This document shows, piece after piece, positions 15,153 to 36,420 of a stretch of 64,000 nucleotides of DNA. The notes below the pieces were generated by a model. The model made no database searches and was not told where the DNA came from. It saw only the letters and a list, made by a program, of their open reading frames with translations. The stretch lies in contig CAZTCH010000006.1 in assembly GCA_964612745.1 (NCBI GenBank), positions 5,477 to 69,476 of the forward strand. The letters run 5' to 3'. Position 1 is the first letter of the stretch. Every line of letters begins with the position of its first letter. Position numbers and translations under genes: made by a program. The DNA comes from an uncultured Candidatus Saccharibacteria bacterium. Lineage in GTDB: Bacteria > Patescibacteriota > Doudnabacteria > UBA920.

Positions 15153-15227
15153 TCGGGAGTAGCTCAGCGGTAGAGCGGCACGCTGTTAACGTGATGGTCC
15201 TGGGTTCGATCCCCAGCTCCCGAGCCA
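15153..15227 (+). tRNA. tRNA-Asn (anticodon GTT), with an encoded CCA end.
   Basis: Manual cloverleaf folding: acceptor TCGGGAG/CTCCCGA, D-arm GCTC/GAGC, anticodon loop CTGTTAA, T-arm CTGGG-TTCGATC-CCCAG, and a CCA 3' end. Confidence 0.85.
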
Positions 15228-15786: not shown

Positions 15787-15807
15787 GACAGTTCTTCGGC
15801 AAGTATT

Positions 15808-16149: not shown

Positions 16150-16313
16150 AGTACAAATAATATATTGCGTTACTATAGTAAGGTTACCACAGTAACTATT
16201 TCTTTGCAAGTCATTAAGTGATGGGCTGCTATTCGTCTAATTTCTTGCTATAATTGGTGCTAATAAAATTAACTACAATTGTACGACTACCATTCCCGTA
16301 CAGGTTAAATTAT

Positions 16314-17892: not shown

Positions 17893-17907
17893 AAAAGACT
17901 AACTTGT

Positions 17908-18480
17908 ATGACTCGATCTATCACACTGGTAACAAAGAATCCTTTGAAAATAGAAGCCATGGAAAGAGCGCTCGTACCCTACAAGATTGCTCTGAACGTT
18001 GAAAATTTTTACGTTCCTGAAATACAGTCGGACACTTGTGAAGAGGTGGCTAAATTTAGCGCTCAGTATGCTGCAAATTATTCTGGAAAAGCAGTGGTAA
18101 AAGCAGACACTGGTTTTTATATTGATTCACTTGGCGGGTTGCCTGGAGTGTATACGAGCGAGTTTGAGAGAAAACTAAGCCCACAGAAACTCTTGAAGCT
18201 CATGCAAGACGAAACTACTAGGAGCGCCTCAGTTGTCTACGCTGTTGCATTCTGCCTACCTCAAGGTGAACCAGTGGTTTTTAGTAGCGGGTCAAGAGGA
18301 ATTATCGCTGAAGATGTTCAAGGCCAAGATGGAATGTTAATCGACTCAATATTTATTCCAGAAGGATTTACTAGAACCTTGGGTGAAATAAAATTGGAAA
18401 GCCAGGCTCAAGCAGATGCAGTGTGGGGAGACGCCGAAGAACAGTTTATAAAATGGTATATACAGACACAGCCAATCTAG
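17908..18480 (+). CDS. Ham1/ITPase-family non-canonical NTP pyrophosphatase.
   Basis: ITLVTKNPLKIEA (TGNxxK-like), KADTGFYIDSLGGLPGVYTSEF, and a C-terminal FIPEGF...GE segment match the Maf/Ham1 fold. Confidence 0.75.
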   Translation: MTRSITLVTKNPLKIEAMERALVPYKIALNVENFYVPEIQSDTCEEVAKFSAQYAANYSGKAVVKADTGFYIDSLGGLPGVYTSEFERKLSPQKLLKLMQDETTRSASVVYAVAFCLPQGEPVVFSSGSRGIIAEDVQGQDGMLIDSIFIPEGFTRTLGEIKLESQAQADAVWGDAEEQFIKWYIQTQPI

Positions 18481-18556
18481 TACCGCATCGGTATCGCCTT
18501 GTACTGACAATTATATTAAATTGAAAGGAGGGCAAGAGATACATCTCTATGCCCTC

Positions 18557-18928
18557 CTACTTCGGGAAGAAAAGTGCAATTTCTCTTTTCGCTTCCTCAA
18601 AGTTATCTGGTGAATGCATCACGTTGTGCGTAACGGATGCGCTATATTGTGTCCGCATAGCCTTTTTAACCGCCAACCCGGTGGCAACGGCGTTTGGACC
18701 TTGCCATACTTGAGCAATAATTGGTGCCGAAGTCTCGAAGGCTACATGCACCCAGAATTGCTCGTCATAGTACGGAAAATCTCGCCACCGAAGCATGAAG
18801 GCTTTGTCTAGCTGCATGCTTTTTTCGTATACAAGCGTTAGACCCGCTTGTCGCATGGCGGCCCCTATAACGGGTGTCAGCTCTAGGGTTATGGCATCGG
18901 GCTTAAGGAGCACAAGTGTTTGCTCCAT
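18557..18928 (-). CDS. ndk: Nucleoside diphosphate kinase.
   Basis: TLVLLKPDA and NVMHSPDNFEEAKREIALFF (catalytic His present), 123 aa. Confidence 0.88.
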   Translation of the reverse strand: MEQTLVLLKPDAITLELTPVIGAAMRQAGLTLVYEKSMQLDKAFMLRWRDFPYYDEQFWVHVAFETSAPIIAQVWQGPNAVATGLAVKKAMRTQYSASVTHNVMHSPDNFEEAKREIALFFPK

Positions 18929-19043
18929 CTTTTGCCTCCGTTTTTGTGTGGAAGTGAACTTTATATGCAGCCGTTACTGCATCTTGCCTGTGAGGGCAGA
19001 AAAGACTAATGGTCTGGCATATAAAGCCTGTAACTTATTTTAA

Positions 19044-19089
19044 GTTGCAGGAGCTATTGGTAAGTAATCTTCTAAACAGCTCCTGCAAC
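19044..19089. terminator. Long hairpin (12-bp stem GTTGCAGGAGCT/AGCTCCTGCAAC) downstream of ndk.
   Basis: The inverted repeat is visible. The loop is about 22 nt, so terminator function is uncertain. Confidence 0.45.
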
Positions 19090-19278
19090 TCAAAATATTT
19101 GCCATCTGTTGTTTATGTTGCCTGTTTCTGAGTTTTTGGTATTTTGACTACTATATCATAGAAACGACGAAAAACAAGGGTCGCATGAAAAATGCCGTAA
19201 AATGGCTCTAATTTGATTGTAAAATAGAAGAGTTCATCATATACTAAGACCAAGCTGTATTAGCTATATAAGTGACTT

Positions 19279-19866
19279 ATGACTATCGTTTTTGAAGGTC
19301 TTCCCGGGTCAGGCAAGACAACACTCGTAAATCATTTTGCGAGAATTTTTGAAGCCGAAGTAGTTCCGGAAATTATTGACTTGGGTGAATCTTGGAAGCG
19401 TGCGTGTGCCACGAATGACCAGAGCTTCTTTTGGCAAAATGATTTGCAAAAATCACTAATCGCTGCACAAGCCCCAAAACATGCTTTTCTAGATCGTGGA
19501 TACGTTACCACTCTCGCTTATAATTACTCAGGCTGGATTTTTAACCAGGAATCTGATTTTCCAAAATTACTTAATAACTATTTTACGGATATTGTTCCAA
19601 AAAATCTCCAACCAGACGCATATCTACTATTTTCAATGTCTACTAAGTTAAGCAATGAAAGAAAGAAGCGGGAAACCATTAAAGGCCACCCCATGCAGGA
19701 TGAGGATTTTCTTAAGAAGATACATTTTTTCTACCAATCTTTCCTATCAACATTTGAGCCGGATATACCTGTGTATCACGTAGACGCGAATGCTTCCCTT
19801 GAGACAGTCCAGGAAAATGTTAAGCACATTTTAACCAGAATCTTACAAGCGCATGGCAATAGCTAA
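19279..19866 (+). CDS. P-loop nucleoside/nucleotide kinase, thymidylate-kinase-like.
   Basis: A GLPGSGKTT P-loop and FLDRGYVTTLAYNYS, which resembles the Tmk DRYxxSxxAYQ motif. Confidence 0.7.
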   Translation: MTIVFEGLPGSGKTTLVNHFARIFEAEVVPEIIDLGESWKRACATNDQSFFWQNDLQKSLIAAQAPKHAFLDRGYVTTLAYNYSGWIFNQESDFPKLLNNYFTDIVPKNLQPDAYLLFSMSTKLSNERKKRETIKGHPMQDEDFLKKIHFFYQSFLSTFEPDIPVYHVDANASLETVQENVKHILTRILQAHGNS

Positions 19867-21190
19867 AAAAATGAAAACCGTTGCAGTGGTATACTTGTCT
19901 CACGATGGACTTGCGAGCCTGTACACAGGAGTCGGAACTTCTGGTCGAGATTTTTGTTTGGCATTTGAAACTATTCAGAAGAAATATAAAAAGAAAGGAT
20001 TGGCACTTACTCTATTCCCTGGAACAATTAGATACAAAAGCAGCTTTCACGGATATAGGGTAGACATTGAAAATGAGGTGTCCGCTATTTGTAAGCGCAG
20101 CGGCGGCAAAATGATTTGGATCGACAATGGTACGCACGGAACTGTTTCGTACGGAGGTCTGGCACAGTGGAAGAAGTGCTCTGCTAGTGCAGCAAAATAT
20201 ATACGAACCCTTTCAGAAAAGTATGACCATGTTATTGCGTTTGCCAATGACACCCCCTTCGCAGGGGTGGGCAGATTAGTTCAGTCACCAAATGTAAGCA
20301 CCGTCTGGGTACCCCATAGCACCGTTATGGTACATAAAGACTTTCGCCTTACCAAAAAAGATGGCAAGACTCAAGCATTTACGCAGAAGCGTTTTATGTG
20401 GGAGCGAGCAGCAATCCAGTGGGCCAATGAGAGCCGCAATAACTGGACTGGCTACACAAGTTTATTCATGAAGCGCCATCTTGTTTCAGCGTATCGAGCA
20501 GACCTATTAAAACTCATGGATACGCAAGTAGGTATATATTTCCCTAGACTTGCGAGTTATAGAACATCACAAACAGAAATAAAAAATAGGCTAACAAGCT
20601 TGGGAATCCCTACAAACAAAGAACTTATTACTACCTTTGCGAGGGCTGAAATGTACAAAGGAGTAGATCTAACACTGGCATTGGGTAAATACACCCATGA
20701 CAAGTATGGAACAACAACCGTGATATTAGTAATACCATACTCAAACAGAGACCCTTATATAAAAGAGATGCAGCAACTACGGGATCGAGTGGATAAAACT
20801 GCAATCCTGCTGTTCGGCCATGATTTCCTCACGCCTCACCTGCTGATGCAGTGGAAACACACCAAAATGGTAGCTGTGCTATCAAGGCAAGAGCCAGCCG
20901 GGCACGTCCCTAATGAATTCAGATACTACAGTAATCCAAACGCGCGACTACTAGTTTCTGACCGTGACGGCCTACCAGAAAGAGTTGCAGACGGTGCAGA
21001 CGGATTTATTACTAGCGTCAACAGCTTAGGGGACATTAAGAGGAAAGCTGACACTATTTTTGCTCTATCTTCTGTAAAATCAAAGTTAATTGCAAAACGT
21101 GGACGCCAGAGAGTCCTGCACGATTACTCCATAGTATCCAATATAGATCGGACACTTAAAAAGATTATGAGTTTATATAATTTAACCTAA
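19853..21190 (+). CDS. 445-aa protein, tentatively a GT-B-fold glycosyltransferase-like enzyme.
   Basis: The N-terminal VVYLSHDGLASLYTGVGTSG and the C-terminal ARLLVSDRDGLPERVADGADGFI resemble the GT4/GT-B donor-binding region. The match is weak. Confidence 0.5.
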   Translation: MAIAKKMKTVAVVYLSHDGLASLYTGVGTSGRDFCLAFETIQKKYKKKGLALTLFPGTIRYKSSFHGYRVDIENEVSAICKRSGGKMIWIDNGTHGTVSYGGLAQWKKCSASAAKYIRTLSEKYDHVIAFANDTPFAGVGRLVQSPNVSTVWVPHSTVMVHKDFRLTKKDGKTQAFTQKRFMWERAAIQWANESRNNWTGYTSLFMKRHLVSAYRADLLKLMDTQVGIYFPRLASYRTSQTEIKNRLTSLGIPTNKELITTFARAEMYKGVDLTLALGKYTHDKYGTTTVILVIPYSNRDPYIKEMQQLRDRVDKTAILLFGHDFLTPHLLMQWKHTKMVAVLSRQEPAGHVPNEFRYYSNPNARLLVSDRDGLPERVADGADGFITSVNSLGDIKRKADTIFALSSVKSKLIAKRGRQRVLHDYSIVSNIDRTLKKIMSLYNLT

Positions 21191-21196
21191 CAAACT

Positions 21197-21868
21197 ATGC
21201 CCATTATCGATTCCTTCACAAAAGAAATAGCCATTATAGAAACGCTCTTCGGAAAATCCTATGAAGATGCAGGTGGTGCCGGGTATCGGTACTATCATAG
21301 TATGAGAGTGGCGAAAACTTGCGAAAGTCTTGCTCAATACGAACAGGTAGAAAATCCAAGGCTCTTAGTATTGGCGGGGTTGTTCCATGACATTGGTAAA
21401 TCTGAGCGTATAGAACAAAATGGCTTCTTGGATGGCCGTCAGGAGGCCGACGTTCTGAAGGGAAATCACGAAGACTACACACTGGTGAAAGAACTGCTCC
21501 AGCGGTATTTAGTTGACCTTCAGCCTGATCAAGACTTAGACATTGTTGCTTCGTATATTGCCAAGAATGATACCAAGGAATCTAAGCTGCTTAAAGACGC
21601 AGATAACCTTGATGAAGTAGGCCTTGTAAACGTTTGGAAAATGTTTACATATGGAGGACTAAAGAAAATATCAATTAAAGATACGCTTGACTATTATTTT
21701 AAGGAAGATAAACCACGTTTACTTAAAAAAATTGATGCTCTCATGAATTTTGATATTTCAAAACAGATGGCGAGCGAGCGTGTGCAAAAAGTTGACGAGT
21801 TCTTGCGTAACTTGGACAAAGAATGTAAAGCAGAAGACATTTCCGTATTGAGGAATTCTTCTTTTTAG
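21197..21868 (+). CDS. HD-domain phosphohydrolase.
   Basis: H...HD metal-binding motifs (YHSMRVAKT and LFHDIGK). Confidence 0.8.
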   Translation: MPIIDSFTKEIAIIETLFGKSYEDAGGAGYRYYHSMRVAKTCESLAQYEQVENPRLLVLAGLFHDIGKSERIEQNGFLDGRQEADVLKGNHEDYTLVKELLQRYLVDLQPDQDLDIVASYIAKNDTKESKLLKDADNLDEVGLVNVWKMFTYGGLKKISIKDTLDYYFKEDKPRLLKKIDALMNFDISKQMASERVQKVDEFLRNLDKECKAEDISVLRNSSF

Positions 21869-21879
21869 TGTAACCACTT

Positions 21880-22653
21880 ATGCAGTATTCAAAGACAGTT
21901 ATCCCAATAGTCAGAGAGGTGCGAAAGTTACTTTTGCCATACTGGGGCACTGTAGACATTATTGCGCAAAAAGATGCATCGTCTCCTGTTAGTGTAGTAA
22001 CAAAGCTGGATTTTGCAGTAGAAAAACAGGTGGCGGAAAGACTTGCCCAAGTTTACCCTCATATCCCATTTATCGGTGAGGAGTACGGGGGAGATAGAGA
22101 AGCCTCAAGATTCTGGCTTATGGACCCCATAGACGGAACGAACCATTTTGTTCGAGGTTTACCATTTTGCACTTCCATGGTCGCCCTTGTTGAGGAAGGA
22201 CAAGTTATCTTTTCTGCTATTTATGATTTTGTAAATGATCACATGTACTGGGCAGAGCGAGGGTTCGGGGCATATTGCGAAACTGAACGCCTGAGTGTTA
22301 GCAAACGCCCTCTTTCTGAAGCCTACATTTGTTGGGAAAGTCGCATAGAGAATCCAGATAATTTAGCACTGTTTCTAAAATTATACGAGAAAGCTATTCT
22401 GCTCAAAACAGTTGCCTCCGGCTGGGAATACGCCATGATAGCCTCCGGTAAGCTTGATGCCCGCATTTGTTTCGACCCGTATAGTAAAGACTACGATTTT
22501 GCCGCTGGGTCACTTATGGTGTCTGAGGCGGGAGGGGTTGTGGCGAATATTGGGTCAAAGGAGTATGACCATAAAAATTTAAATTTTATTGCTGCAAATC
22601 CTATTATATATTCAGAGCTGACAGAAAAGGCTGACTCGTTGTTTCATAAATAA
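21880..22653 (+). CDS. Inositol-monophosphatase-family phosphatase (IMPase/CysQ-like).
   Basis: WLMDPIDGTNHF and WEYAMIASGKLDA motifs. Confidence 0.85.
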   Translation: MQYSKTVIPIVREVRKLLLPYWGTVDIIAQKDASSPVSVVTKLDFAVEKQVAERLAQVYPHIPFIGEEYGGDREASRFWLMDPIDGTNHFVRGLPFCTSMVALVEEGQVIFSAIYDFVNDHMYWAERGFGAYCETERLSVSKRPLSEAYICWESRIENPDNLALFLKLYEKAILLKTVASGWEYAMIASGKLDARICFDPYSKDYDFAAGSLMVSEAGGVVANIGSKEYDHKNLNFIAANPIIYSELTEKADSLFHK

Positions 22654-22750: not shown

Positions 22751-22796
22751 GAGCCAACAAAAAAGTAGTACTTCGGTACTACTTTTTTGTTGGCTC
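22751..22796. terminator. Strong hairpin (21-bp stem GAGCCAACAAAAAAGTAGTAC/GTACTACTTTTTTGTTGGCTC) after the IMPase gene.
   Basis: A perfect inverted repeat with a 4-nt loop. Confidence 0.7.
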
Positions 22797-22925
22797 TAGA
22801 AAGGGCTGGGGATCGAAGGGAGCGGTTCGCTACCAGCGAAATTTCATGCGAATGCTTGGAGTATGAAATAGTGGCGGGCCAGCGTTAGGTGTTTAAATAG
22901 AGGCGCCTGAAACCTTTTCTTTTTA
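22776..22925. repeat. Copy 1 of a tandemly duplicated intergenic element of about 110-130 bp (TTGGCTCTAGAA...GCGTTAGG...).
   Basis: About 85% identity to 23040-23150. Confidence 0.6.
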
Positions 22926-23039
22926 GCTTGAGCGGAGGAGGGCACCCAAGCAAAATAAATAGCACCACTCATGCGTGGTGCTATTTTATTTGATTAATAT
23001 TTCGTTTGAGGATTCAAATAAAGGTACCTGACACCTTTT

Positions 23040-23216
23040 TTCTTGGCTCTAGAAGGAGCTCAGGGATCGAAAAGAGCGTTCTGCTACCAGCAGAATTTCA
23101 TGCGAATACGTGGAGCATGAAATAGCGGCGGGGTCGCGTTAGGCGTTATTCGAAACGACCATGAGCCTGTCGAATGGGAGTTGAGAATAGCCGTGGGTGA
23201 CCGATCCTCAGCTCCC
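23040..23216. repeat. Copy 2 of the same intergenic element. It ends in a 16-nt near-copy of the tRNA-Asn 3' end.
   Basis: CGATCCTCAGCTCCC at 23202-23216 versus CGATCCCCAGCTCCC in the tRNA. The distal part (...TTCGAAACGACCATGAG...GAGAATAGCCGTGGG) recurs at 54715-54790. Confidence 0.6.
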
Positions 23217-23221
23217 ATAAT

Positions 23222-23557
23222 TTATTCTCCTAAAATATCTTTTAAGACATTGTCAAATCCGAAAAGTTTTGAACGGGCAATGGCAAATACTTCTTGTAGT
23301 TTATCTCCGTGAGTTATACTGAATCCTTCCTCGCCAATACGCATGAATTCACTATGGTCATCTCTATTAGGATAATAGTACAGCCAATGTGCTCCTTCTG
23401 AGTCTTTCAGAACAGACCAGAGGTATTTATCGTCGGGGTAAGTAAAGTAAAACTCTTCACTTCCGCTCGGGGCATCGTCTGATTTTCGTACTGATTGAAT
23501 TTTTTCTTGGTCTGAAACTATTTTTTCGACGAGTTGTTGAATTTTTAGATTATTCAT
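23222..23557 (-). CDS. Hypothetical protein (111 aa, acidic, soluble).
   Basis: An ORF with a 1-bp gap to the upstream ORF. No recognisable motif. Confidence 0.55.
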   Translation of the reverse strand: MNNLKIQQLVEKIVSDQEKIQSVRKSDDAPSGSEEFYFTYPDDKYLWSVLKDSEGAHWLYYYPNRDDHSEFMRIGEEGFSITHGDKLQEVFAIARSKLFGFDNVLKDILGE

Positions 23558-23558
23558 A

Positions 23559-24002
23559 TTACTTGCCTTTAGAATTATGGTTTTCTACCTCTAAGGTGGT
23601 TATGCTCTCCTTAATCTCGCTATATAAACTAATTTTGTCTGTTTCGTTAACCTGTTTACCTTCATCAATATCGGTCATCATGACGCGAACTCTTTTCATC
23701 ATATTGTCCCCGAAGTGTTTGCTTAAAGTGGGATTGCCTTTAATTTTTCCCAGGATATGAGCTAAAGCAGAACGAAATTTTTTTGATTTATCTTTATCGT
23801 CCTGACTGCTTTCATGTAGGGTTTCTATCCAATGTCTTAGGTCCGCCAAGGATGCTTGGAGAGAGTAACTTAGAAGAACTGCAAGTGCAGCCGATATTTT
23901 CTTACGTTGCGTAATGGCTACGATAATGGCTGCTACCCCCACCGTTATCTCTGTAATATTCGCTATAAATGAGATGCCTGCTTGAATAGTTTGGAAGGTC
24001 AT
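23559..24002 (-). CDS. Hypothetical membrane-anchored protein (147 aa, N-terminal TM helix).
   Basis: An ORF with a hydrophobic N-terminus, paired with 23222-23557. Confidence 0.55.
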   Translation of the reverse strand: MTFQTIQAGISFIANITEITVGVAAIIVAITQRKKISAALAVLLSYSLQASLADLRHWIETLHESSQDDKDKSKKFRSALAHILGKIKGNPTLSKHFGDNMMKRVRVMMTDIDEGKQVNETDKISLYSEIKESITTLEVENHNSKGK

Positions 24003-24329
24003 AATGGTCCACCCGGGCTGGATTGTTCAATCTAGCACCGTTAATCATGCAATACTTGTTATTTTACTCCCTAGTCTACTCATTTTAATCCTCCGTTGGT
24101 TTTCTGTCTATAAGTATGTTTTTGTGCATTAAAGGATTAATGGGAAGAAAGAGTTAGAAAAGGTCTTGGAGGATTATTTTAAACAGCACCCTTGGGGTAA
24201 GTAGATTTAAATAAGGGTGCCTGACACCTTTTCTTTCTATTTCATGTCTAGTTAAAATTGCCGAATTTAGCTTACGAGAAAATGAAAATGGTGGTAAAAT
24301 TATGATAAATCATCAGACCCTTTTTTGTT

Positions 24330-27300
24330 ATGACCCCTACGACAGCGCAATTTGATAGCAAAGTGCTCCGACGCTCCAAGAGCGAAAGCGACTTTAACTT
24401 GTATAGAGCTGCCTTAGAGTGGGGACTTATTGACCCTATTGTGATAGAAAGTTCGGAAGATTTAAAGTCGAAGTATAGGTGGGAAGATCGTGTAAGTCCA
24501 TACAAGCATCAGGTAACTAACCTGATTACTTTCTGTCGGAGGCTTCCTGTGAGTTTATTGGCAGATGATGTGGGCTTGGGTAAAACCATAAGTGCAGGGC
24601 TAATTGCAAGTGAACTTATTTCCCGAGGTCGTCTTACAAAGATATTAATAGTTTGTCCAAAAATCCTACGGGACCAGTGGCAAGAAGAGCTGCGTGTAAA
24701 ATTTGATATTCAATCCGTCATTGTCACAGGCCAAGAGTTAGTTAAAGTAAAGCCACCTGAAGAAGGTGGCGCAGTTATTACTACTTATAATACCGCCCGC
24801 TTGTATCTTGATAAGATAGAGAAGGTTGGGTACGAAATGTTAATCCTGGACGAAGCGCATAAGCTAAGGAATCTGTATGGGACTGACGCGGCACCAAAAG
24901 TCGCATTGAAATTTAAGAAAGCGTTAGCTGATAGATTATTTCAATATGTATTAATGTTAACCGCAACACCTATCCATAATAGGTTGTGGGATATTTATTC
25001 TTTGATAGATTTGTTGGCTGTCGCTCGAGGCCACGAAAACCCCTTTGGTCAGGAGGGGATATTTGCTCGTAAATATATAGAGGGAGATAAAATTCAGGCT
25101 CGCCGACTACGGCTAGAGGCTAAGGAGGAATTCCGAGACAATGTATACAGGTATATGTCTCGAATTAGACGCGGAGATACAGACTTAAGTTTTCCAGAAA
25201 GAGTTATTCAACTGCACCCAGTTGAACCATCAGCAGAAGAAGTAGAATTGCTGAATTTAATCCGAGAACCAATCAAGGAAGTTAATTTTCTTTCTCAAAT
25301 AACTATATTACAAACTTTTGTTAGCAGTCCTGAGGCTCTGTTGAGAGTCCTAGAAAATATGGCGCTAAACAAAACGTTGCCCAAATCCTTACAACTACAG
25401 GATGTCAAAGCAATTGTTTCAAGAATCAAAATTACAGCTAAGTTGAAAGGGCTGGGTATTTTGATAGAAAAACTTAGCCAAGAGAAACCGGAAGATTGGC
25501 GTGCAGTAATATTTACAACTCGAAGAGAAACTCAGACTACAATACAACACTTTCTTCAACAGAAGGGTATTTCTTGCGGTCTGATTAATGGTGACTCTGG
25601 ATCTAGAAACCAGGATACTATAGCGAATTTCACTGCTGATGTCCCCAAGATTCATGTAATAGTTTCTACAGAGGCAGGTTCTGAAGGTGTTAACTTACAA
25701 AAAGCCAACGTGCTGGTTAATTACGACTTACCGTGGAATCCCATGATCGTAGAGCAGCGTATTGGTCGCATTCAACGTCTTAGTTCTAAATTCGCTAAAG
25801 TATCAATCTTTAATATTATTTTAAAAGGTACTTTTGAAGAATACATTGTGGCAAGGTTGGTCGAAAAGTTGCAGATGGCTTCTAATGCAATAGGAGATAT
25901 TGAAGCATTATTGGAAGCATCTGGGATTGACGATGATGATAATGACTCCGATGGGTTTGCAGATAAAATAGGTAAATTAGTGCTAGCCTCATTGGCTGGT
26001 ATGGATGTCCAAGAGTCTACTTTACGAATAGAAAAAAGTATAGAAGACGCTAAGTTTAAGCTTGAACAAGAAAAACAGACTATAAATACTCTTTTGGGCA
26101 GTATGAATGGCGCCGAGGATATGGGCCCAAAGTGCCCTAAGCTACCTACCCAAGTTAGGTCTATTAATGTCCAATCTTTTGTGATGCAGGCACTTGAAAG
26201 CCTTGGAGTGCGTATAGAAGAGAAATCTGGTCAGCGTGTTGCTGTGTCGGAAAACCAACAAGAGGTAATTCGTTTCTCGGACGAAAAAGTCGATCCTGAT
26301 TTAATAAGTACTCTATACGCTCCTGGTACACCTGCATTTGAACGTTTAGTTTCTCGGGTTGCTGCCAGAGATTTACACTTAACTGAAGATGTAGATACAG
26401 ATATAATAAACTCCTTAAAGGAGATATCTTGTCAGTGGGCAGAAGGTTTCGAGGGAGAGATACAAGACTCCAGAATTACAGAAACTTGGCGGTGCTTTCA
26501 AGGCAGCGCGTTGGTGCGTGTCAGAGCAACAGTTGCATGCGATAGTTATGAAAGACTAATAGATATAGACTGTAGTCCGGAAGACCACTGTATGGAGACA
26601 GGGAAATATGGTCTAGACACGATTGGTGAAATAATCGACCAGCCCAGCAGTGTGGGTGTGGTAACCAAACACCTATATGAGAAGGCTCTTATGGATGAAG
26701 GTATATCAGAATTCAGTAGGTTCTATACAGAACGCCGTGCCCAAGAAATTAGCGCATCGGGTAGTGACGAAAGAAAACGAAAAAAAGTAGAAGATGACTT
26801 CACGCCTCGTCTAGATATAGTTCTCGTTGGGTTAAAAGGGACCGTTTATCGTAAGATAAAGACACTAGCTTCTTATAAATTAAGTGCTGACTTTGAATAC
26901 CAAAGTTCTCTCTTAATAACGCCTTACACAAATACGATAAATCAATCTCCGGATTTAGTGAGGTGCGATAAAACTGGCAGGATGGCACCACAAGACTGTA
27001 TTGCTAAATGTGAGATTAGTGGGTCTCGCGTATTGAGGCACCTCTTAGTGGCGTCTGAGTTAAGCGGTCGATTAGCTCTGCCAGAACATATCTTAATATG
27101 CAGTCTAAGTACTAAGCGTGTGCTAATTGACGAAGCCGACAAATCTTCAATTACAGGGAAGATGATAACAAAGAACTTACTCTATACATCAGCAGTAAGT
27201 GGTAAGACTGCGGAGCCAGAATTTTTTAGCAAGTGTGAATTTACTGACACGCATGCTTTGGAAGCTGAGTTGGAAATAAGTCAGGTTTCTGGAAAGAAGT

Positions 27301-28031
27301 TTAGAGTGGATGAGCAGCTACGCTCTCATATTTCTGGGAAGATTGGTCACAAACAAGAATTTATTTTTTGTGCAGAGACTAATGTGCCGCTTTTACCAAC
27401 TGAAGCCGAGACATGCGAGGTAACAGGTAAAGTAGTTGTGCCAGGTTTGCTAGAGAAGTGTGAGGTGACAGGGAAAATGGTATTGCCAGATTTGCTCGAA
27501 AAGAGTGCGCTGAGTAGTAAGAAGGCATTAAAGAAATATTTTGTCGCCAGTAACCTTTCTAATGCTAATATTTTGGAGCAGGAAGCAATTAGATCAGCTA
27601 TTGGTAATTTCTGCACACCTCAAGAGGCCAGGCTGTGCTCTTGGAGTGGCAAACTTTGTCATCCTGATGATTTGAGAATCTGCGACCTAACCGGACTAGA
27701 GATTGAGTTTGAGTACGCTACTAGTAACGGAGGTACTCGACTGGGCCCTCTCGTGCTTATGCTTGATGGTGTGTCGCGAAAGGGAGACTTCTCTGAGCAC
27801 TGGCGAGCTCTGGCAGATAATTTGACTAAAGCTTTGGGTGGTGGGCGAGCTAATATTGAGGCTGCAACGCTTTCGCCAAATAAACAAAATATTGCAGTGT
27901 GCGCTGAGGTGCGTACATGGGTTGGTCTGCAAACCCGTCATACTGGATTCGTGTTTTCTGTATCAGACAATAGTATTATAGGCAGAGTTGTTCAGGGGAA
28001 GAGGGTTACTGGTGGCTGGTCCATTCGTTGA
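24330..28031 (+). CDS. SNF2-family ATPase/helicase (1233 aa) with a large C-terminal repeat domain of unknown function.
   Basis: The N-terminal roughly 530 aa carry DVGLGKT (motif I), DEAHKLRN (II), TATP (III) and QRIGRIQR (VI). The C-terminus carries about 14 degenerate 15-residue repeats with a C-x-x-T/S-G-K motif, including an exact tandem 45-bp DNA repeat at 27412-27501. Confidence 0.9.
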   Translation: MTPTTAQFDSKVLRRSKSESDFNLYRAALEWGLIDPIVIESSEDLKSKYRWEDRVSPYKHQVTNLITFCRRLPVSLLADDVGLGKTISAGLIASELISRGRLTKILIVCPKILRDQWQEELRVKFDIQSVIVTGQELVKVKPPEEGGAVITTYNTARLYLDKIEKVGYEMLILDEAHKLRNLYGTDAAPKVALKFKKALADRLFQYVLMLTATPIHNRLWDIYSLIDLLAVARGHENPFGQEGIFARKYIEGDKIQARRLRLEAKEEFRDNVYRYMSRIRRGDTDLSFPERVIQLHPVEPSAEEVELLNLIREPIKEVNFLSQITILQTFVSSPEALLRVLENMALNKTLPKSLQLQDVKAIVSRIKITAKLKGLGILIEKLSQEKPEDWRAVIFTTRRETQTTIQHFLQQKGISCGLINGDSGSRNQDTIANFTADVPKIHVIVSTEAGSEGVNLQKANVLVNYDLPWNPMIVEQRIGRIQRLSSKFAKVSIFNIILKGTFEEYIVARLVEKLQMASNAIGDIEALLEASGIDDDDNDSDGFADKIGKLVLASLAGMDVQESTLRIEKSIEDAKFKLEQEKQTINTLLGSMNGAEDMGPKCPKLPTQVRSINVQSFVMQALESLGVRIEEKSGQRVAVSENQQEVIRFSDEKVDPDLISTLYAPGTPAFERLVSRVAARDLHLTEDVDTDIINSLKEISCQWAEGFEGEIQDSRITETWRCFQGSALVRVRATVACDSYERLIDIDCSPEDHCMETGKYGLDTIGEIIDQPSSVGVVTKHLYEKALMDEGISEFSRFYTERRAQEISASGSDERKRKKVEDDFTPRLDIVLVGLKGTVYRKIKTLASYKLSADFEYQSSLLITPYTNTINQSPDLVRCDKTGRMAPQDCIAKCEISGSRVLRHLLVASELSGRLALPEHILICSLSTKRVLIDEADKSSITGKMITKNLLYTSAVSGKTAEPEFFSKCEFTDTHALEAELEISQVSGKKFRVDEQLRSHISGKIGHKQEFIFCAETNVPLLPTEAETCEVTGKVVVPGLLEKCEVTGKMVLPDLLEKSALSSKKALKKYFVASNLSNANILEQEAIRSAIGNFCTPQEARLCSWSGKLCHPDDLRICDLTGLEIEFEYATSNGGTRLGPLVLMLDGVSRKGDFSEHWRALADNLTKALGGGRANIEAATLSPNKQNIAVCAEVRTWVGLQTRHTGFVFSVSDNSIIGRVVQGKRVTGGWSIR

Positions 28032-28119
28032 TTATTCTTGTTCTGCCAGATTAAGAAAAGGTACCATAAAGAAAAGGTGTCAGGTACCTTTTGTAGTTAC
28101 TTTTTGGTATTATGTCTGT

Positions 28120-28379
28120 ATGGATAAAAAAGTTTTGCGAGGGCTTGCGCTTAAAAAAGAGGAGAACGATAAGGTAGTAAAGCGCATTATTACTTTTTCC
28201 AGTCGGAAAGAGACGAAGAAATTGGTGTTATTGCCGCACAGGAGGTGCTCGATTTTTTTCTTGAGGAGGTTGGGGCTGTTATTTACAACCAAGGGGTGGA
28301 CGATGCGCAGTCTGCTTTGAAAGAGCAGCTAGAAGAACTAGAGTATGCGCTGGGAATGTTAAAAAAAGACACAAAGTAA
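28120..28379 (+). pseudogene. Small conserved-looking protein (tentatively DUF2164-like) interrupted by a -1 frameshift in a T5 homopolymer at 28194-28198.
   Basis: Frame 1 reads MDKKVLRGLALKKEENDKVVKRIITF. It then continues in another frame as QSERDEEIGVIAAQEVLDFFLEEVGAVIYNQGVDDAQ...KDTK*, which has no start codon of its own. One extra T would restore a single 86-aa ORF. Confidence 0.5.
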
Positions 28380-28394
28380 TTTTATTGAAAATAT

Positions 28395-28820
28395 ATGGCA
28401 AGCGTAAATCCTTGGATTAACTTTAACGGCAATGCGGAAGAAGCATTTACGTTTTACAAGTCAGTGTTTGGCGGAGAGTTCGGCAAAGTTGTACGGTTCA
28501 AAGATCTTGCCAGTGCAGAATTTCCTGTCCCAGAAAACGAGCAAGAAAAAATCATGCTTATTACCTTGCCAATTGGGCAGGGAAGCGAGCTCATGGCGAA
28601 CGACGTGCCAGCAGTTATGGGCAAAGTAAACGAGCGGGAAAACAGAAGCAAAATTTCCGTGCGCGCAGAAAGCAAAGAAGAAGCAGAAAAGTTGTTTGCT
28701 GGTTTGTCTGCTGGGGGAGAGGTAGAAGGTCCAATGGGCGACGGTCCGTGGGGTTCTTATGCTGGCATGTTCCGCGACAAGTACGGCATTGAGTGGATAA
28801 TCGAGTTTTACACAAAATAA
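28395..28820 (+). CDS. VOC-superfamily protein, PhnB-like.
   Basis: NPWINFNGNAEEAFTFYKSVFGGEF is a PhnB/3-demethylubiquinone-like N-terminus. Confidence 0.8.
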   Translation: MASVNPWINFNGNAEEAFTFYKSVFGGEFGKVVRFKDLASAEFPVPENEQEKIMLITLPIGQGSELMANDVPAVMGKVNERENRSKISVRAESKEEAEKLFAGLSAGGEVEGPMGDGPWGSYAGMFRDKYGIEWIIEFYTK

Positions 28821-28827
28821 CATATTT

Positions 28828-29214
28828 ATGAATAGTACCCAACATTCGCAAAGAATAAGTGTAGTGAAAGAGTTGTATATACCGTTTGTGGTTTTGATTG
28901 CTTTTTTTCTTGTGCAGGCACTTGGTATTATTGGCGAGGTCGGACTTACACTTGGGATTATAGGTGTGACGCTTTTCACGTTCGCCATGCGTTGCCACGT
29001 AGGGGAGGTAAAATTGTTGTTGATTGGTACAGCCTTGGGCGCGTTTTTAGAAATTGGTTTACGAGTGTTTGGTTTCCAACAAGTTTGGACTCGCGCGTCT
29101 TTGTTTGGCGTTCCGTATTGGTTACCACTCATATGGGGTTTAGGTTTTGTATTAATTACTCGGCTTGGTATATATATTAGAAAAATGCAAGACACAGTGG
29201 ATGTGCACGCATAA
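28828..29214 (+). CDS. Hypothetical integral membrane protein (128 aa).
   Basis: Three to four hydrophobic helices. The start overlaps the stop region of the upstream gene. Confidence 0.6.
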   Translation: MNSTQHSQRISVVKELYIPFVVLIAFFLVQALGIIGEVGLTLGIIGVTLFTFAMRCHVGEVKLLLIGTALGAFLEIGLRVFGFQQVWTRASLFGVPYWLPLIWGLGFVLITRLGIYIRKMQDTVDVHA

Positions 29215-29338
29215 GTCTGTAGTAAAAAGGCCACCTTCGCACTGCGCGAAGGTGACCTTTGTTTATTGAGTTTTTATTGTTTCTTTTGATAAAGCGCACG
29301 CAGTGTGTTACCGTAGTTGCAATAGGTAAACTTGCTCT

Positions 29339-30019
29339 ATGAACCAAAACTTTGTTGTTGTATTTTCCCACGGCATGGGTGTACGGAAAGATAATCTCGG
29401 CTTGTTCACAGACATAGCACAGCTGTTGTCGACCCACGGAGTTGAGAGTGTGCAGTTTGACTACAATGTAATAGATGACGAAAAAAACGAAGTCTTTGTA
29501 CCGCCATTTAGCCAGCAAGCAGAAAAACTGCAATCGGTTTTGGCAGAGACTGCACAGCGGTATCCTGCGAAAGATATTATCATAATTGCTCAGTCACAAG
29601 GGTGCGTCATTCCCACCTTGTGTACTTTGTCTTTCGTTCGACAAGTGATTGGCATTGCTCCATTTTTCCATACGAACATGGCGGAAGTTGTGAAGCGTTT
29701 TGAATCGAAGCCAGAAAACAAATTAGATTTCACGTCTGTGTCCCGAAGACATCGGACCGATGGTAGCACAACACTGTTCCCACCGGAATACTGGCAGGAG
29801 CGATTTAAAATGGACATTGTGCAGCGCTACAACAGTCTTGCGCAACAGGTGCAATTGAGTTTGATTTATGGGCACGACGATAAGATTATCGACTTTAACA
29901 ACTTGCGTGACATAAAGTACGCCAGAATTATTAACGCCGACGGTAACCACGATTTTTCGGCACAGTACCGAGCCGGTTTGCTAAAGATTGTTGCGCAAGA
30001 GTTACAGCTGCAGTCTTAG
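29339..30019 (+). CDS. Alpha/beta-hydrolase-fold protein.
   Basis: VVVFSHGMG, a nucleophile-elbow-like IIIAQSQGC, and a C-terminal His region. Confidence 0.7.
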   Translation: MNQNFVVVFSHGMGVRKDNLGLFTDIAQLLSTHGVESVQFDYNVIDDEKNEVFVPPFSQQAEKLQSVLAETAQRYPAKDIIIIAQSQGCVIPTLCTLSFVRQVIGIAPFFHTNMAEVVKRFESKPENKLDFTSVSRRHRTDGSTTLFPPEYWQERFKMDIVQRYNSLAQQVQLSLIYGHDDKIIDFNNLRDIKYARIINADGNHDFSAQYRAGLLKIVAQELQLQS

Positions 30020-30050
30020 TATGCTGGCGCATGACCCACCGCAGGAGACC

Positions 30051-30428
30051 ATGACCGTTATGTCTATATCTAGAAAAAAATTTGTGCTCCTGTTTTTACT
30101 CTCTGGGTTTGCCTTTATGGCAATTACTACTTCTTTGTTGGGAAGTACAGGACCGCGTGGGTTTCCGAAACAGCCGGACTCTGTGTTACGTACGGGGAGT
30201 GACTCACCAGTAGCGTGGAAGCGCGTGCTGGCTGCGGGGCTTTATCCGATTAAAGTTGTATTGCTCTGGCCGTTAGCATTGCCAAACAGTACTTTTTTAC
30301 AAGATGATCCACCACCACCGTTTGTGGGTGCGTACATTGCGGCGTATTGGAGTTTACTCGCACTCGGTTTACACGCTGTACTGAAAGTGATGGCCCGAAC
30401 GCGACGAGTGTCAGTTTCTAAGGTGTAA
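30051..30428 (+). CDS. Hypothetical membrane protein.
   Basis: An ORF with several TM helices. An alternative start lies at 29988. Confidence 0.5.
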   Translation: MTVMSISRKKFVLLFLLSGFAFMAITTSLLGSTGPRGFPKQPDSVLRTGSDSPVAWKRVLAAGLYPIKVVLLWPLALPNSTFLQDDPPPPFVGAYIAAYWSLLALGLHAVLKVMARTRRVSVSKV

Positions 30429-30670
30429 TAAAACAACCGCCGGTGGCGGTTGTTTTATTTATATTCCAGTTCTGCAAGGTCTATGTGTACGTTGTTCTTT
30501 TCTGCGATTTTAGCAATCCAGCTTACTATGACATCTTGGCGGTGTTTGAGCTCCAAGTAGCGCTCGTCGGAAAGGTGGTTAAGAAAAGGTATCTGGTATC
30601 TTTTCTTAATACCTTTTCTTAAATTCGTATACAAATTTGTAAAAATTGTCTGGCTGTTATTACTGCTATA

Positions 30671-30850
30671 ATGATTTATATGGAACCAGAAAATATAAAA
30701 AAACAGCAACAGAGACTGGAGCAAATATACAAGAATTATTTACAAGAACTTGAATCTTTATTGAATGAAAGAAAACATATAATTACGGATTTTGTGCATG
30801 CGTTAGATGCAAAAAAGATTCAAGCCATTAAAAAGGTGCTAGGTTTATGA
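30671..30850 (+). CDS. Small 59-aa ORF, predicted coiled-coil, translationally coupled (ATGA overlap) to the downstream kinase-like gene.
   Basis: MIYMEPENIKKQQQRLEQIYKNYLQELESLLNERKHIITDFVHALDAKKIQAIKKVLGL. Its stop overlaps the ATG at 30847. An extended -10 TGCTATAAT sits immediately upstream. The ORF is below the 60-aa cutoff of the ORF track. Confidence 0.4.
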   Translation: MIYMEPENIKKQQQRLEQIYKNYLQELESLLNERKHIITDFVHALDAKKIQAIKKVLGL

Positions 30851-31968
30851 GTATTCCAAATCAGGCCTATGAAAAACCAAACATGGAAGATATCGGGCCA
30901 GCCAATGAGCTTGCAGAGCAAGTAATAACTTCTCGACAAAGTTCCGAAAAAGGAGTTTCTAGAGAACAATTAAGACACCTTGCGAGTGAGGTGGCCCAAC
31001 ACGTCGAAGCCCAAGCAGCTCGAGTCGCGAGTGCTGATCTTGGCCTAGATACAGCTCTCGCAGATCCGCATGTGTCTCCTGAGCTTCTTGCAGAAACGAA
31101 GCTAGAAGCAAATGTTGAAAATCGCCTAACTCTAAATAGTGTTAGTTTGGAGGCGCTTGCAAAAGACACACTTTCGCAAGTTAGAGACGTAGAAACAGAA
31201 GTAGTCATGGCAGAGAAAGAGGAGCTAATGGCTAACGCGCCTGTGTTGGGTCCTGGAAAGTTTTTGGGTGGCCATGAAGGGAACGCACATCTGGTGGAGT
31301 TAGGGGGTTTTGGATATGCGGTACAAAAGACTTATGACATGGAGAGTAATCCTCTTGCAGAAGAAGTGCGAGAACGGCGGATTCATCAAGAAAGAGCAGT
31401 TTATGTTCTTGATAGAGCAATAAGGCTTGGAGTAGTCCCTGTAACTATAGAAAGAGTTATCAACGAAAGACTTGCAAGTATGCAAGAGTTTATAGAGGGT
31501 GCTCAAACAAGCAATAAGGTGAAACCTGAACAAGTACCAGTTTCGGAGATGCAAAAAATCGTACTGTTAGATTTAATAACAACAAACTGGGACCGTAGGA
31601 CGAATCCTGAAAACTTACTCGTCCGTCTTTCCGAAGATGGTTCAGGGCAAGATCAGGTGTTCGCTCCAGATAGTGGAGCTTCTGCTTTTAACCCCCGCAC
31701 TGCTTTTGCCTCGGAAATTCCACAAGAATTAACTGAGCAACCACTAGATGCAAACATTGTTAAATTATTGCACAACTTTAATAATAATCCGGGAAAGGTC
31801 ACGCAACTTCAAGCAGATCTAACCTCTTTGCTTGGAGAGAGAACTGCGACATTGTACATTTTACGGATTGACGGATTAAGCCGTTCAATAGATGCTAATG
31901 GGAAGGTGGATTCAGAAAAGCTACGGATGAATATGCAGAGCAACTTTGAAATATCGGAGTTAATGTGA
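30847..31968 (+). CDS. PI3/PI4-kinase-like protein (type II PI4K-like catalytic segment) with an acidic, low-complexity N-terminal region.
   Basis: LLDLITTNWDRRTNPENLLV followed by VFAPDSGASAFNP resembles the catalytic loop (DRxxxN) and the DxG activation segment of PI3/4-kinase-fold enzymes. Confidence 0.55.
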   Translation: MSIPNQAYEKPNMEDIGPANELAEQVITSRQSSEKGVSREQLRHLASEVAQHVEAQAARVASADLGLDTALADPHVSPELLAETKLEANVENRLTLNSVSLEALAKDTLSQVRDVETEVVMAEKEELMANAPVLGPGKFLGGHEGNAHLVELGGFGYAVQKTYDMESNPLAEEVRERRIHQERAVYVLDRAIRLGVVPVTIERVINERLASMQEFIEGAQTSNKVKPEQVPVSEMQKIVLLDLITTNWDRRTNPENLLVRLSEDGSGQDQVFAPDSGASAFNPRTAFASEIPQELTEQPLDANIVKLLHNFNNNPGKVTQLQADLTSLLGERTATLYILRIDGLSRSIDANGKVDSEKLRMNMQSNFEISELM

Positions 31969-32144
31969 GGTATGTTGAGTTAAGAAAAGGTACCAGGTAC
32001 CTTTTCTTAACACATACTCGCACTCGGTTTACACGCTGTACTCGGAGCGGTATTTCGCAAGTAGCGGCTATAGGGTTGTGCGTAGTGGCGTGTAGCTACA
32101 GTTCGCTCTTGAACAATACCCTGTTTTCAGGGCATACTACGTGC

Positions 32145-32597
32145 ATGAGAACTATATACAGAGACATTGTGGGTGGGTTCATTTTTTCGCGTGACGGCAA
32201 ACTGCTTTTAGGTAAAAATCGGAAAGGCGGGGTGTACGAAGGGTGCTACGTTGTCCCGAGTGGTGGAGTCGAGTCTGGAGAAATAAGTGAACAAACTCTC
32301 GCTCAAACTCTAAAAGAAGAAACAGGTATTGTAATCGATAACGCAAAAATCACCGCCATGGGCACCTCCACAGGGGAGCACCAAAAAACACTTGCAGATA
32401 CCGGAGAAGTGGTAAATGTTAAAATGACCTTTCACGATTTCCGCATTGACCTAGACCAAGACGCTGCAGCAGTCACGCTGACCACAGAAGATGACTGGCA
32501 CGAAGCAGAATGGTTCCTAGTTTCTGATCTCGACGAACTGAAGCTGAGTCAGCCTACCTGTAAGCGACTAATTGCTATGGGTTTGGTAAACTTGTAA
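32145..32597 (+). CDS. NUDIX hydrolase.
   Basis: Nudix box GGVESGEISEQTLAQTLKEETGI. The start was chosen at the Met downstream of the palindromic motif; the ORF itself extends to 31965. Confidence 0.8.
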   Translation: MRTIYRDIVGGFIFSRDGKLLLGKNRKGGVYEGCYVVPSGGVESGEISEQTLAQTLKEETGIVIDNAKITAMGTSTGEHQKTLADTGEVVNVKMTFHDFRIDLDQDAAAVTLTTEDDWHEAEWFLVSDLDELKLSQPTCKRLIAMGLVNL

Positions 32598-35847: not shown

Positions 35848-36420
35848 TAAACCCCCAGCTTTAGCTGGGGTGTGCATTTAAAAGCGTAGCTCTTGTCATA
35901 TACTAAAATCACCCACCTTTGGGTAGAAAGGGGGTGATTTTCGCAATGGTCCAAAGTCGTAAATTGTACCAACTTGAACATTGCACGTACCGATGTTTTT
36001 ACCACGTGGTGTAGACGCCGCGCCACCGCAGGCCCCGGTACTGCAAGACAAGTATATCAAAGCAGAGCTAAAAAGGATATTTAGAGCAATCTGCAAGTGG
36101 AAAGGGTGGGAAATATCTGCGTGGCACATTGGAGATGAACATATCCATCTGTACATTGGTATTCCACCAAAGTTTTCCATCAGTTACAGTCTTGCAGTTC
36201 TGAAAGGTAAGTCTTCTGCATGGATTAAGAAAAAGACGAAACAGTTTCCCGCTGGTCCTTTGTGGGCAAGGGGATACTTTGTGTCTACAGTTGGTATTGA
36301 TGAGGTAATCGTAAAACGATATGTCCAAAATCAACAGCACTATCAAGTAGAACCGCATAAGCTGTTTTAGTCTGCGTAGCAGGTACAGACAAAAGCCACC
36401 AGCATACGCTGGTGGCTAGT
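35848..36420. mobile_element. IS200/IS605-family element (tnpA only) with subterminal hairpins.
   Basis: A Y1/HuH transposase ORF flanked by hairpins (ACCCCCAGCTTTAGCTGGGGTG at the left, GCCACCAGCATACGCTGGTGGC at the right). Confidence 0.6.
35945..36370 (+). pseudogene. tnpA: IS200-family transposase TnpA, frameshifted near codon 17.
   Basis: The N-terminal MVQSRKLYQLEHCTYRCFYHVV* lies in one frame. The HuH motif HIHLYIGIPPKFSISYSLAVLKGKSSAWI...RGYFVSTVGIDE lies in another frame. Confidence 0.7.

Follow-up and report, generated by a model that had tools for sequence, protein, structure and literature searches.

A REP-like palindromic repeat in a Patescibacteria-like genome and its probable link to a clade of short RAYT-like Y1 transposases

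The window analysed here, a 64,000-nt stretch of contig CAZTCH010000006.1 from an uncultured Candidatus Saccharibacteria bacterium (GTDB lineage Patescibacteriota, Doudnabacteria), contains six copies of a short palindromic motif with the core consensus AAAAGG-N3-C-W-G-N3-CCTTTT, all at 22.9-32.0 kb and none elsewhere in the 64 kb. We interpret the motif as a family of repetitive extragenic palindromic (REP)-like repeats whose cognate enzyme is a short Y1 (HUH) tyrosine transposase similar to the REP-associated tyrosine transposases (RAYTs), with the window copies as orphans; we put the probability of this reading at about 0.75. A simple, searchable 21-nt core (AAAAGG-N3-CWG-N3-CCTTTT) would thereby be tied to one RAYT-like clade across at least 10 phyla, and such repeats would reach Patescibacteria-like small genomes, for which no report of REP/RAYT systems was found in the literature searched. 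From the sequence itself, a Patescibacteria/CPR origin of the window is suggested by a 73% nucleotide match to an Adlerbacteria contig and by the genes present.

A scan of the exact degenerate core against 185,579 reference genomes revealed at least 120 loci, and the chance loci expected from this 37-bit motif in such a scan are estimated at only a handful. Among the matches listed, the hosts belong to at least 10 phyla, including Planctomycetota, Bdellovibrionota, Acidobacteriota, Actinomycetes, Elusimicrobia, Omnitrophota, Chloroflexota (Anaerolineales), Atribacterota, Firmicutes (Syntrophomonadaceae), and several Proteobacteria, as well as the candidate phyla radiation (CPR) groups Adlerbacteria, Paceibacteria, Parcubacteria, and Saccharibacteria, and their G+C contents range from 31% to 73%. 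Therefore, the motif is not lineage-specific. Assemblies elsewhere carry at least 3-11 loci, with at least 11 in one metagenome-assembled genome (MAG), and many of the listed loci have 2-6 copies spaced 30-90 nt apart, mainly as inverted pairs. The longest open reading frame (ORF) across a site spans 101 codons in the median, compared with 355 at random positions (loci with at most 52% G+C), which indicates that the sites are mostly extragenic. At least 8 sites come within 60 nt of the end of a contig, in line with the tendency of repeats to break assemblies. None of 2.9 million viral contigs matched the motif, and a phage origin was rejected on this ground.

Arm duplications beside full sites, which are found in the window at 28051-28096 and 30579-30622, also occur in other phyla (L040, L049, L012, L053, and L103). 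At L040 7255-7330, the arrangement is [left arm][left arm-right arm][right arm], which looks like the insertion of one copy into the centre of another. In the Pirellulales MAG Zod_Metabat.1299, a composite of ~90 nt, consisting of two inverted motif copies around GTGCGAAGCACCCGAAGGGCCGTTCCGGC and resembling a REPIN doublet, recurs in both orientations across at least 11 contigs, often at their ends (L003, L008, L011, L017, L028, L064, L067, L070, L076, L098, and L106).

The link to a transposase was revealed by an all-versus-all comparison of the ORFs within 2.5 kb of the sites, in which the only shared neighbour among the matches listed was a small family of HUH-motif proteins. Its members match Pfam Y1_Tnp, and their sole NCBIfam hit is REP_Tyr_transpos, at 55-73 bits against a cutoff of 80 bits. 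The Y1 gene is located between sites 7084 and 7901 in a Pirellulaceae locus (L056) and between sites 756/866 and 1531 in an Elusimicrobia locus (L066); a transposase gene fragment adjoins three sites in L012, and a distant Y1-like ORF lies 150 nt from a site in L025. In an independent test, homologues of the L066 protein were collected (3,577 hits), and the DNA around four of them, picked without reference to the motif, was fetched. All three members of a short clade of ~210 aa (P0009, P0018, and P0040, ~51-58% identical to the L066 query) had 3-5 motif copies on either side of the gene; some of these copies had the inner stems GGTAGC/GCTACC or GGAGCC/GGCTCC while keeping the foot AAAAGG...CCTTTT. 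The fourth, P0085, a longer homologue with a DnaA_C-like tail, had no motif flanks; the motif thus goes with the short clade. This REPtron-like arrangement was observed in five genomes (L056, L066, L122, L125, and L128; three reached by protein homology only) from at least 2 phyla, and the proximal upstream and downstream sites were inverted in 5/5 cases. Inverted sites on both sides of the transposase gene point to a REP-like element with its cognate transposase clade.

The sites also carry the signature of a folded strand. A looser pattern yielded 211 sites, and their four inner positions were fully Watson-Crick in 122 sites; in 59/211 they paired by Watson-Crick plus G.T pairs on the strand with the central A, and in only about 3 on the other strand alone. 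The inner arms covary (TGCC/GGCA, TGTC/GACA, TACC/GGTA, TAGC/GCTA, and AGCC/GGCT), and the foot A4GG/CCT4 is conserved across phyla. The covariation and the strand bias of the G.T pairs fit selection on the folded single strand, and this in turn fits Y1/HUH enzymes, whose substrates are read that way. Hairpin substrates on a single strand are established for IS608 TnpA and E. coli TnpA-REP (PMC6006769, PMC3479197).

In the window, a search with AAAAGGTRYCWGRYACCTTTT at up to 2 mismatches gave 5 matches in the 64 kb compared with 0.00 in 100 dinucleotide shuffles, and a half-site search gave 10 matches compared with 2.4 expected. The copies have two forms. The asymmetric (A-type) form AAATARRGGYRCCTGAMACCTTTTYTT is present at 22894-22921, 23015-23042, and 24208-24235 and in the opposite orientation at 28067-28096, and the symmetric (P-type) form TTAAGAAAAGGTAYC-W-GRTAYCTTTTCTTAA at 30579-30609 and 31980-32010. 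The sites are 27-33 nt in size with a 1-nt centre, and we designate the copies a1-a4, p1, and p2:

22894-22921: REP-like copy a1, degenerate, TAAATAGAGGCGCCTGAAACCTTTTCTT; core at 22898-22918 with 4 mismatches
23015-23042: REP-like copy a2, AAATAAAGGTACCTGACACCTTTTTTC; core at 23019-23039 with 1 mismatch
24208-24235: REP-like copy a3, AAATAAGGGTGCCTGACACCTTTTCTT; core at 24212-24232 with 2 mismatches
28051-28065: isolated left-arm half-site, TTAAGAAAAGGTACC, which terminates the SNF2-side segment
28067-28096, plus strand: REP-like copy a4, TAAAGAAAAGGTGTCAGGTACCTTTTGTAG; core at 28072-28092, exact
30579-30622, plus strand: REP-like copy p1, TTAAGAAAAGGTATCTGGTATCTTTTCTTAA, with a duplicated right-arm half-site, TACCTTTTCTTAA; core at 30584-30604 with 1 mismatch
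31979-32011: REP-like copy p2, perfect palindrome GTTAAGAAAAGGTACC-A-GGTACCTTTTCTTAAC; core at 31985-32005, exact

Of the six copies, four follow the end of a gene, and the other two (a3 and p1) are upstream of genes. Copy a1, whose hairpin is very weak (-0.8 kcal/mol), directly follows the first copy of a duplicated 112-nt element; a2 is located ~180 nt downstream of two minus-strand genes and is complementary to 28072-28091 over 20 nt at 100%; and a3 occupies the divergent region between this minus-strand gene pair and the SNF2 gene. Copy a4 begins 37 nt past the SNF2 stop codon, its hairpin is G.T/G.U-compatible on the plus strand, and its right arm pairs with the half-site at 28051-28065 (-7.5 kcal/mol for the a4 composite folded as DNA). 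Copy p1 consists of a palindrome at 30579-30609, in which both departures from symmetry are G.T-compatible on the plus strand, and the additional right-arm half-site at 30610-30622; it folds at -21 kcal/mol as plus-strand RNA and, as a composite, at -10 kcal/mol as DNA. It precedes the promoter and start of a 59-aa ORF by ~50 nt, and a Logan contig of the same organism (L121) starts within it, at 30598. Copy p2 has 15-nt arms around a 1-nt centre at 31980-32010, extending to 19 nt at 95%, and folds at -14 kcal/mol as DNA (z = -7.7) and at -20 kcal/mol as an RNA hairpin; it is positioned 12 nt past the stop of a kinase-like ORF and 4 nt before the right copy of a direct repeat described below.

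Direct reading and the repeat and pattern searches confirmed the motif at all six places given in an earlier note on this DNA, and its statement that the motif is found nowhere else in the window held, with no further copy in the 64 kb even at up to 4 mismatches. Of the two palindromes it had described, the perfect one at 31980-32010 with 15-nt arms stood; the central one required correction, being located at 30579-30609 (with the half-site to 30622) and not at 30588-30636, a start ~9 nt off. The four units that the copies had been said to delimit (the two minus-strand genes, the SNF2 gene, a five-gene block at 28120-30428, and the small ORF with the kinase-like gene) are as described, except that the first gene of the five-gene block is frameshifted and the last unit lies within a 1,660-bp insertion. 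The frameshift, in the DUF2164-like gene at 28120-28382, is a 1-nt deletion in a T-run (TTTTT compared with TTTTTT in a related contig, L137, where the 95-aa gene is intact) and is either a pseudogene mutation or a homopolymer sequencing error.

Each copy of the 112-nt element (22782-22893 and 23035-23147; 253 nt apart, 82% identity) begins at a hairpin T-run, and a REP-like copy follows one and precedes the other. Two internal stems show compensatory changes (TTCGCT/AGCGAA compared with TTCTGCT/AGCAGAA). The element had no Rfam match and no copy among the fetched loci; it may be a small RNA or a 3'-untranslated-region element of the minus-strand gene pair.

Comparison with two related contigs revealed how the gene content around these copies varies. 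One contig, L137, is ~90% identical and was reached via the closest homologue of the membrane ORF 30021-30428, and the other, L138, is ~95% identical. Positions 1730-2893 of L137 correspond to window 29218-30382, and positions 2866-3118 to window 32015-32267. Two copies of an exact 28-nt direct repeat enclose a 1,660-bp unit that is missing in L137 and present in L138; with L137 lacking it, the unit in the window is an insertion, delimited as follows:

30355-30382, plus strand: left 28-nt direct repeat, within the 3' end of the membrane ORF 30021-30428
30383-32014, plus strand: insertion, absent from L137 and present in L138
32015-32042, plus strand: right 28-nt direct repeat, followed by the in-frame ancestral C-terminus ..LGAVFRK and a stop codon

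The insertion comprises, in order, a substitute C-terminus of the membrane ORF, a terminator hairpin (~30430-30455), the tail of a convergent minus-strand ORF, p1, the 59-aa ORF 30671-30850 (with a TATAAT box 8 nt before the ATG at 30680), a kinase-like ORFan at 30847-31968 whose sole relative is a 99% twin, p2, and CACA, so that it ends 4 nt past the perfect palindrome. P0241, the closest homologue of the membrane protein and encoded on L137, ends with ..LGAVSRK, which fits the frame after the second repeat copy and not the present window tail. In L138, the right repeat is cut to 12 nt and the hydrolase gene is missing. L137 additionally lacks the 128-aa ORF 28817-29217, and its homology with the window stops leftward exactly at 28066, the edge of a4; a4 itself is conserved. 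In place of the SNF2 gene, L137 carries a NUDIX gene between a4 and a collapsed P-type site, TTAAGAAAAGGTACCTTTTCTTAA, with the flanking REP-type sites at 439-462 and 964-984 of that contig.

Copies a4, p1, and p2 are orthologous in relatives of 90-95% identity, that is to say, vertically inherited. REP-like copies are found at some gene-variation junctions, not at all of them; the window copies mark edges of gene blocks gained or lost between relatives and do not define cassettes of the integron type. The 28-nt repeat is too long for a target duplication, and no integrase was found among the ORFs tested; the duplication looks more like the product of site-specific integration or of a one-off illegitimate event. 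A dif/pdif (Xer) site was considered for the repeat and rejected, as its arms lack dyad symmetry.

In the mechanism that we propose, the elements would be short non-autonomous palindromic repeats that fold as a hairpin on one DNA strand. By analogy with IS200/IS605 TnpA and E. coli TnpA-REP, the enzyme would bind the single-stranded hairpin, cut and rejoin the DNA near its foot, and in this way seed copies into intergenic DNA. Persistence of the copies in a low-G+C accessory stretch may reflect tolerance of insertion there; the hairpin repeats may also be hot spots at which illegitimate or site-directed joining takes place; some of them, such as a4 and p2, could double as transcript-end hairpins in a secondary role.

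Several observations weigh against the REP-like interpretation. A cognate transposase was not detected in the 64 kb by tblastn, phmmer, or a hidden Markov model (HMM) of 71 short-clade proteins run on six frames, and no tnpA gene lies between or beside the REP-like copies in the window. The 5' GT[AG]G (or CGTC) tag is absent from the window copies and from the 156 aligned sites checked for it; without a GTAG tag, the element is filed with the 'atypical' or TIR (terminal inverted repeat)-like classes and not with canonical REPs. The copies are clustered rather than dispersed, with 6 in 9 kb and 0 in the other 55 kb of the window, and the hairpins of a1-a3 are weak by DNA folding. The strand rule, by which the strand with the central A is the G.T-compatible one, is broken by p1 (centre-T strand) and gives no clear answer for a3. 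No trace of recent transposition is seen, given the orthology of a4, p1, and p2 described above, and a lineage-specific scan of the JGI metagenomes with TTAAGAAAAGGTAYCWGRTAYC gave only 2 contigs, both unrelated. Transposition by Y1/HUH enzymes makes no target duplication; this chemistry therefore leaves the 28-nt repeat around the insertion unexplained.

The only match of the 71-homologue HMM in the window was a Y1_Tnp gene at 35981-36370 (plus strand) of an unrelated IS200-like type (Pfam E = 6e-23). This gene appears decayed, as a TAG interrupts the frame after ..YHVV and the frame shifts near 36010-36040, and is located 4 kb from the REP cluster; its own hairpins, CCAGC-N4-GCTGG at 35853-35870 and 36394-36417, are unrelated to the motif. 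The minus-strand ORF tail beside p1 (30455-30575), which resembled a RAYT remnant by eye, was rejected as such (HMM E = 45).

Other explanations account for part of these observations. One is that the repeats carry cargo: inverted REP pairs, or recombination at REP centres, would move whole genes, and the REP-like copies would be active junctions in a hairpin-based cassette-exchange array. It draws on the synteny break of L137 exactly at the left edge of a4, where the foreign side ends in a REP half-site; on the insertion that ends just past p2; on the different single gene (NUDIX) bracketed by REP-type sites in L137; on the half-sites 28051-28065 and 30610-30622, which would jointly rebuild one P-type REP; on the nested arms of L040, which suggest insertion into REP centres; and on the transposase gene, which is itself 'cargo' between inverted REPs. 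However, the left end of the insertion lies inside a gene, 196 nt from the nearest REP-like copy, the 28-nt direct repeat is not a product of HUH enzymes, and two gene indels (the 128-aa ORF 28817-29217 and the hydrolase gene of L138) have no REP at their edges. SNF2 homologues elsewhere lack flanking REPs, and the kinase-like ORFan is known only in this context, with no second context showing mobility. We therefore regard active cargo junctions as unlikely, and it is similarly doubtful that the hairpins are working joints of gene shuffling through a trans-acting Y1 transposase or the replication machinery and not passive passengers; if they were, small CPR-type genomes would possess a hairpin-based cassette exchange analogous to integrons and evolutionarily unrelated to them. 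The half-site scars, the synteny break at a4, the end of the insertion just past p2, and the bracketed NUDIX gene of L137 all agree with this idea.

A role at transcript ends would explain other features. The motif could be mainly a bidirectional intrinsic terminator or a stabiliser of mRNA ends that recurs by selection for transcript ends, since it has the form A-tract, stem, T-tract, folds into stable RNA hairpins (p2, -20 kcal/mol; p1, -21 kcal/mol), and follows the SNF2 stop (a4, 37 nt) and the kinase-like stop (p2, 12 nt) where neither gene has another terminator nearby. In addition, a2 and a1 are downstream of the minus-strand pair, and REPs elsewhere are mainly downstream of genes (PMC3733652). 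By contrast, a3 and p1 are upstream of genes in promoter regions, the T-run of the P-type form lies within the stem with no U-tract after it, the A-type stems are weak, and stems are A/U-rich, whereas other genes of the region use ordinary G+C-rich terminators (22751-22796, 29232-29254, and ~30430-30455). Identical 21-mers in hosts of 31%-73% G+C, in multiple copies and flanking a transposase, would also be unexpected for a terminator. As the principal function, termination is thus improbable, and the lineage-specific terminator suggested in the earlier note is contradicted by the at least 120 loci in at least 10 phyla; as a secondary role, it is plausible for the copies at 28068 and 31980.

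The earlier note had also suggested an attC-like site of an integron-like cassette array. The sites are indeed palindromic and lie between genes, the GTTAAGA...TCTTAAC ends of the P-type form are close to the attC R'/R'' boxes, and the insertion with its substitute gene end and 28-nt repeat recalls integrase-borne elements. The cassette content likewise varies, as L137 and L138 differ from the window by whole genes here, contrary to a refutation envisaged in that note, in which relatives would show no such variation. Nevertheless, no integron integrase or tyrosine recombinase, and likewise no serine recombinase, was found by Pfam among the 36 window ORFs tested (all of 15-33 kb plus others of at most 364 aa); the sites are 31-33-nt palindromes without extrahelical bases or a variable central part; and the A-type copies lack the boxes, GTTAAGA/TCTTAAC ends being carried only by the P-type window copies. 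The orientation of the units is mixed and they have promoters of their own; among them are a minus-strand gene pair and a 5-gene block. The 28-nt repeat bears no relation to the REP sequence and is not dif-like, and the cross-phylum partner is a Y1 transposase and not an integrase. It is thus very unlikely that the motif marks an integron-like array or serves as the att site of a tyrosine or serine recombinase. The attC idea is nonetheless right in spirit (a single-stranded hairpin read by a DNA-cutting enzyme) and wrong in the family. Taken as a whole, the interpretation in the note is partly supported: the repeat is real, restricted to this stretch, and placed between gene blocks of varying content, but none of the three suggested functions is the best one. 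Least probable of all is an operator of a dedicated transcription factor, the remaining suggestion: the dyad-symmetric 15+15 site, the two copies in promoter regions (24209 and 30579), and an XRE-family gene at 15808-16209 would suit it, but no regulator gene recurs near the motif among the at least 120 loci, where the sole recurrent adjacent protein is the Y1/HUH transposase, 4/6 copies are at gene ends, and the G.T versus A.C strand asymmetry and inner-stem covariation favour a folded single strand over a duplex.

Three further candidates were rejected. A sigma-54 promoter, suggested by TGGCAC/TGGTAC within the motif, has the wrong GG-to-GC spacing (9, not 11); invertase sites of the hix/gix type share only a superficial AAAACC..GGTTTT likeness; and no known RNA family in Rfam matched over the sites at the gathering score or at E <= 1.

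The REP-like copies lie in a stretch at ~15-32 kb that begins at a tRNA-Asn gene and has a G+C of 0.38-0.44 compared with 0.45-0.50. A 124-aa ORF (15186-15560) overlapping the tRNA-Asn gene was read as a truncated recombinase tail and had no family hit. After it, within 15153-22653, comes a low-G+C block whose genes encode an XRE regulator, thymidylate-synthase-like, QueC-like, Ham1/ITPase, and NDK proteins, a dNMP kinase, a glycosyltransferase, an HD hydrolase, and an IMPase-family protein; this gene set resembles a module for modifying nucleotides or DNA bases that came from a phage or an island. The SNF2 helicase (24330-28031, 1,233 aa) shares 55-65% identity along its entire length with proteins of Elusimicrobia, Patescibacteria, Blackburnbacteria, and Nitrospirota, and PADLOC gave it generic hits only (BrxH, DrmD, DpdE, and ZorD). 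In the homologue loci (L134-L136 and L139-L142), the gene is followed by a 350-510-aa PD-(D/E)XK/DUF2779-type partner gene, which is missing in the window; in L140, the pair lies among terminase, ParB-methyltransferase, and dUTPase genes in a prophage-like context. That the REPs and the SNF2 gene form one travelling cassette was rejected, as only 1/7 homologue loci (five proteins) has a REP, which in this locus (L134) is 5 kb off. Farther along the window, an IS30-like transposase gene (HTH_38 and rve domains; 53146-54141) is directly beside the tmRNA gene (54236-54632).

At the window locus, a more ordinary reading replaces the integron-like one, and gene-level variation at repeat edges is documented. 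The motif accounts for points at which MAG contigs break and marks DNA that is accessory and prone to recombination, and the hairpin AAAAGGTGTCAGGTACCTTTT offers a defined substrate for the biochemistry of group-1 RAYTs.

The motif can be compared with four known systems. With attC sites, it shares the use of folded single strands as recombination substrates and a position between genes of variable content. An attC site has the architecture R''-L''...L'-R' with a variable centre, extrahelical bases, a length of 57-141 nt, and a GTTRRRY box. The size and architecture of the motif are different, no IntI was found among the tested ORFs, and the units are not promoterless unidirectional single-ORF cassettes; integron membership thus fails on every feature tested. 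The insertion sequence (IS) family IS200/IS605 resembles the present system in its Y1 enzyme, its one-strand imperfect hairpins with tolerated G.T mismatches, and its independence of terminal inverted repeats. However, its left- and right-end hairpins are directly oriented within a discrete IS, whereas the palindromes here are solo, and the IS200-like pseudogene of the window uses unrelated CCAGC-N4-GCTGG hairpins.

The REP/REPIN and RAYT systems of E. coli, Pseudomonas, and Stenotrophomonas are comparable in having hairpin palindromes of ~20-35 nt that are extragenic, multi-copy, and often in inverted pairs, and in having the gene of a Y1/HUH enzyme bracketed by inverted copies (REPtron). The present system differs from them in that (i) the motif has no GT[AG]G tag; (ii) copy numbers appear low to moderate; (iii) the transposases score below the NCBIfam RayT cutoff; (iv) the core A4GG...CCT4 is common to many phyla, whereas classical REPs are lineage-specific; and (v) the window has no transposase and its copies are clustered.

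The fourth system is the group described as TIRYT/TIRtrons (Di Nocera 2013, PMC3733652), TnpAY1 subclass 2.1 (Quentin 2018, PMC6006769), or Group 1 RAYTs (Bertels 2017, PMC5581495). According to these three papers, its genes (with NHVH and Y[IV]HLNP) have the widest distribution and tend to be transferred horizontally, and their flanks are modestly repeated (~12 per replicon) or are TIRs, some of them self-complementary and arranged in dimers. Bertels et al. report 16-mers in the flanks that are moderately repeated, together with indications of horizontal transfer (PMC5581495), Di Nocera et al. report TIRs that flank the genes and have the motif GGGGWSAS (PMC3733652), and Quentin et al. report no REP-like structure for subclass 2.1 (PMC6006769). 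The L066-type enzyme has NHVH and YIHLNP, its close relatives carry Bac_DnaA_C, and GGGGWSAS agrees with GGTGTCAG of the present motif at 7/8 positions. The A4GG-N3-CWG-N3-CCT4 palindrome is not described in the accessible text of the papers on this group. The clade tied to the core would belong to a group whose main survey recorded no REPs (PMC6006769). The palindrome fits, and sharpens, the subclass 2.1/TIRtron picture.

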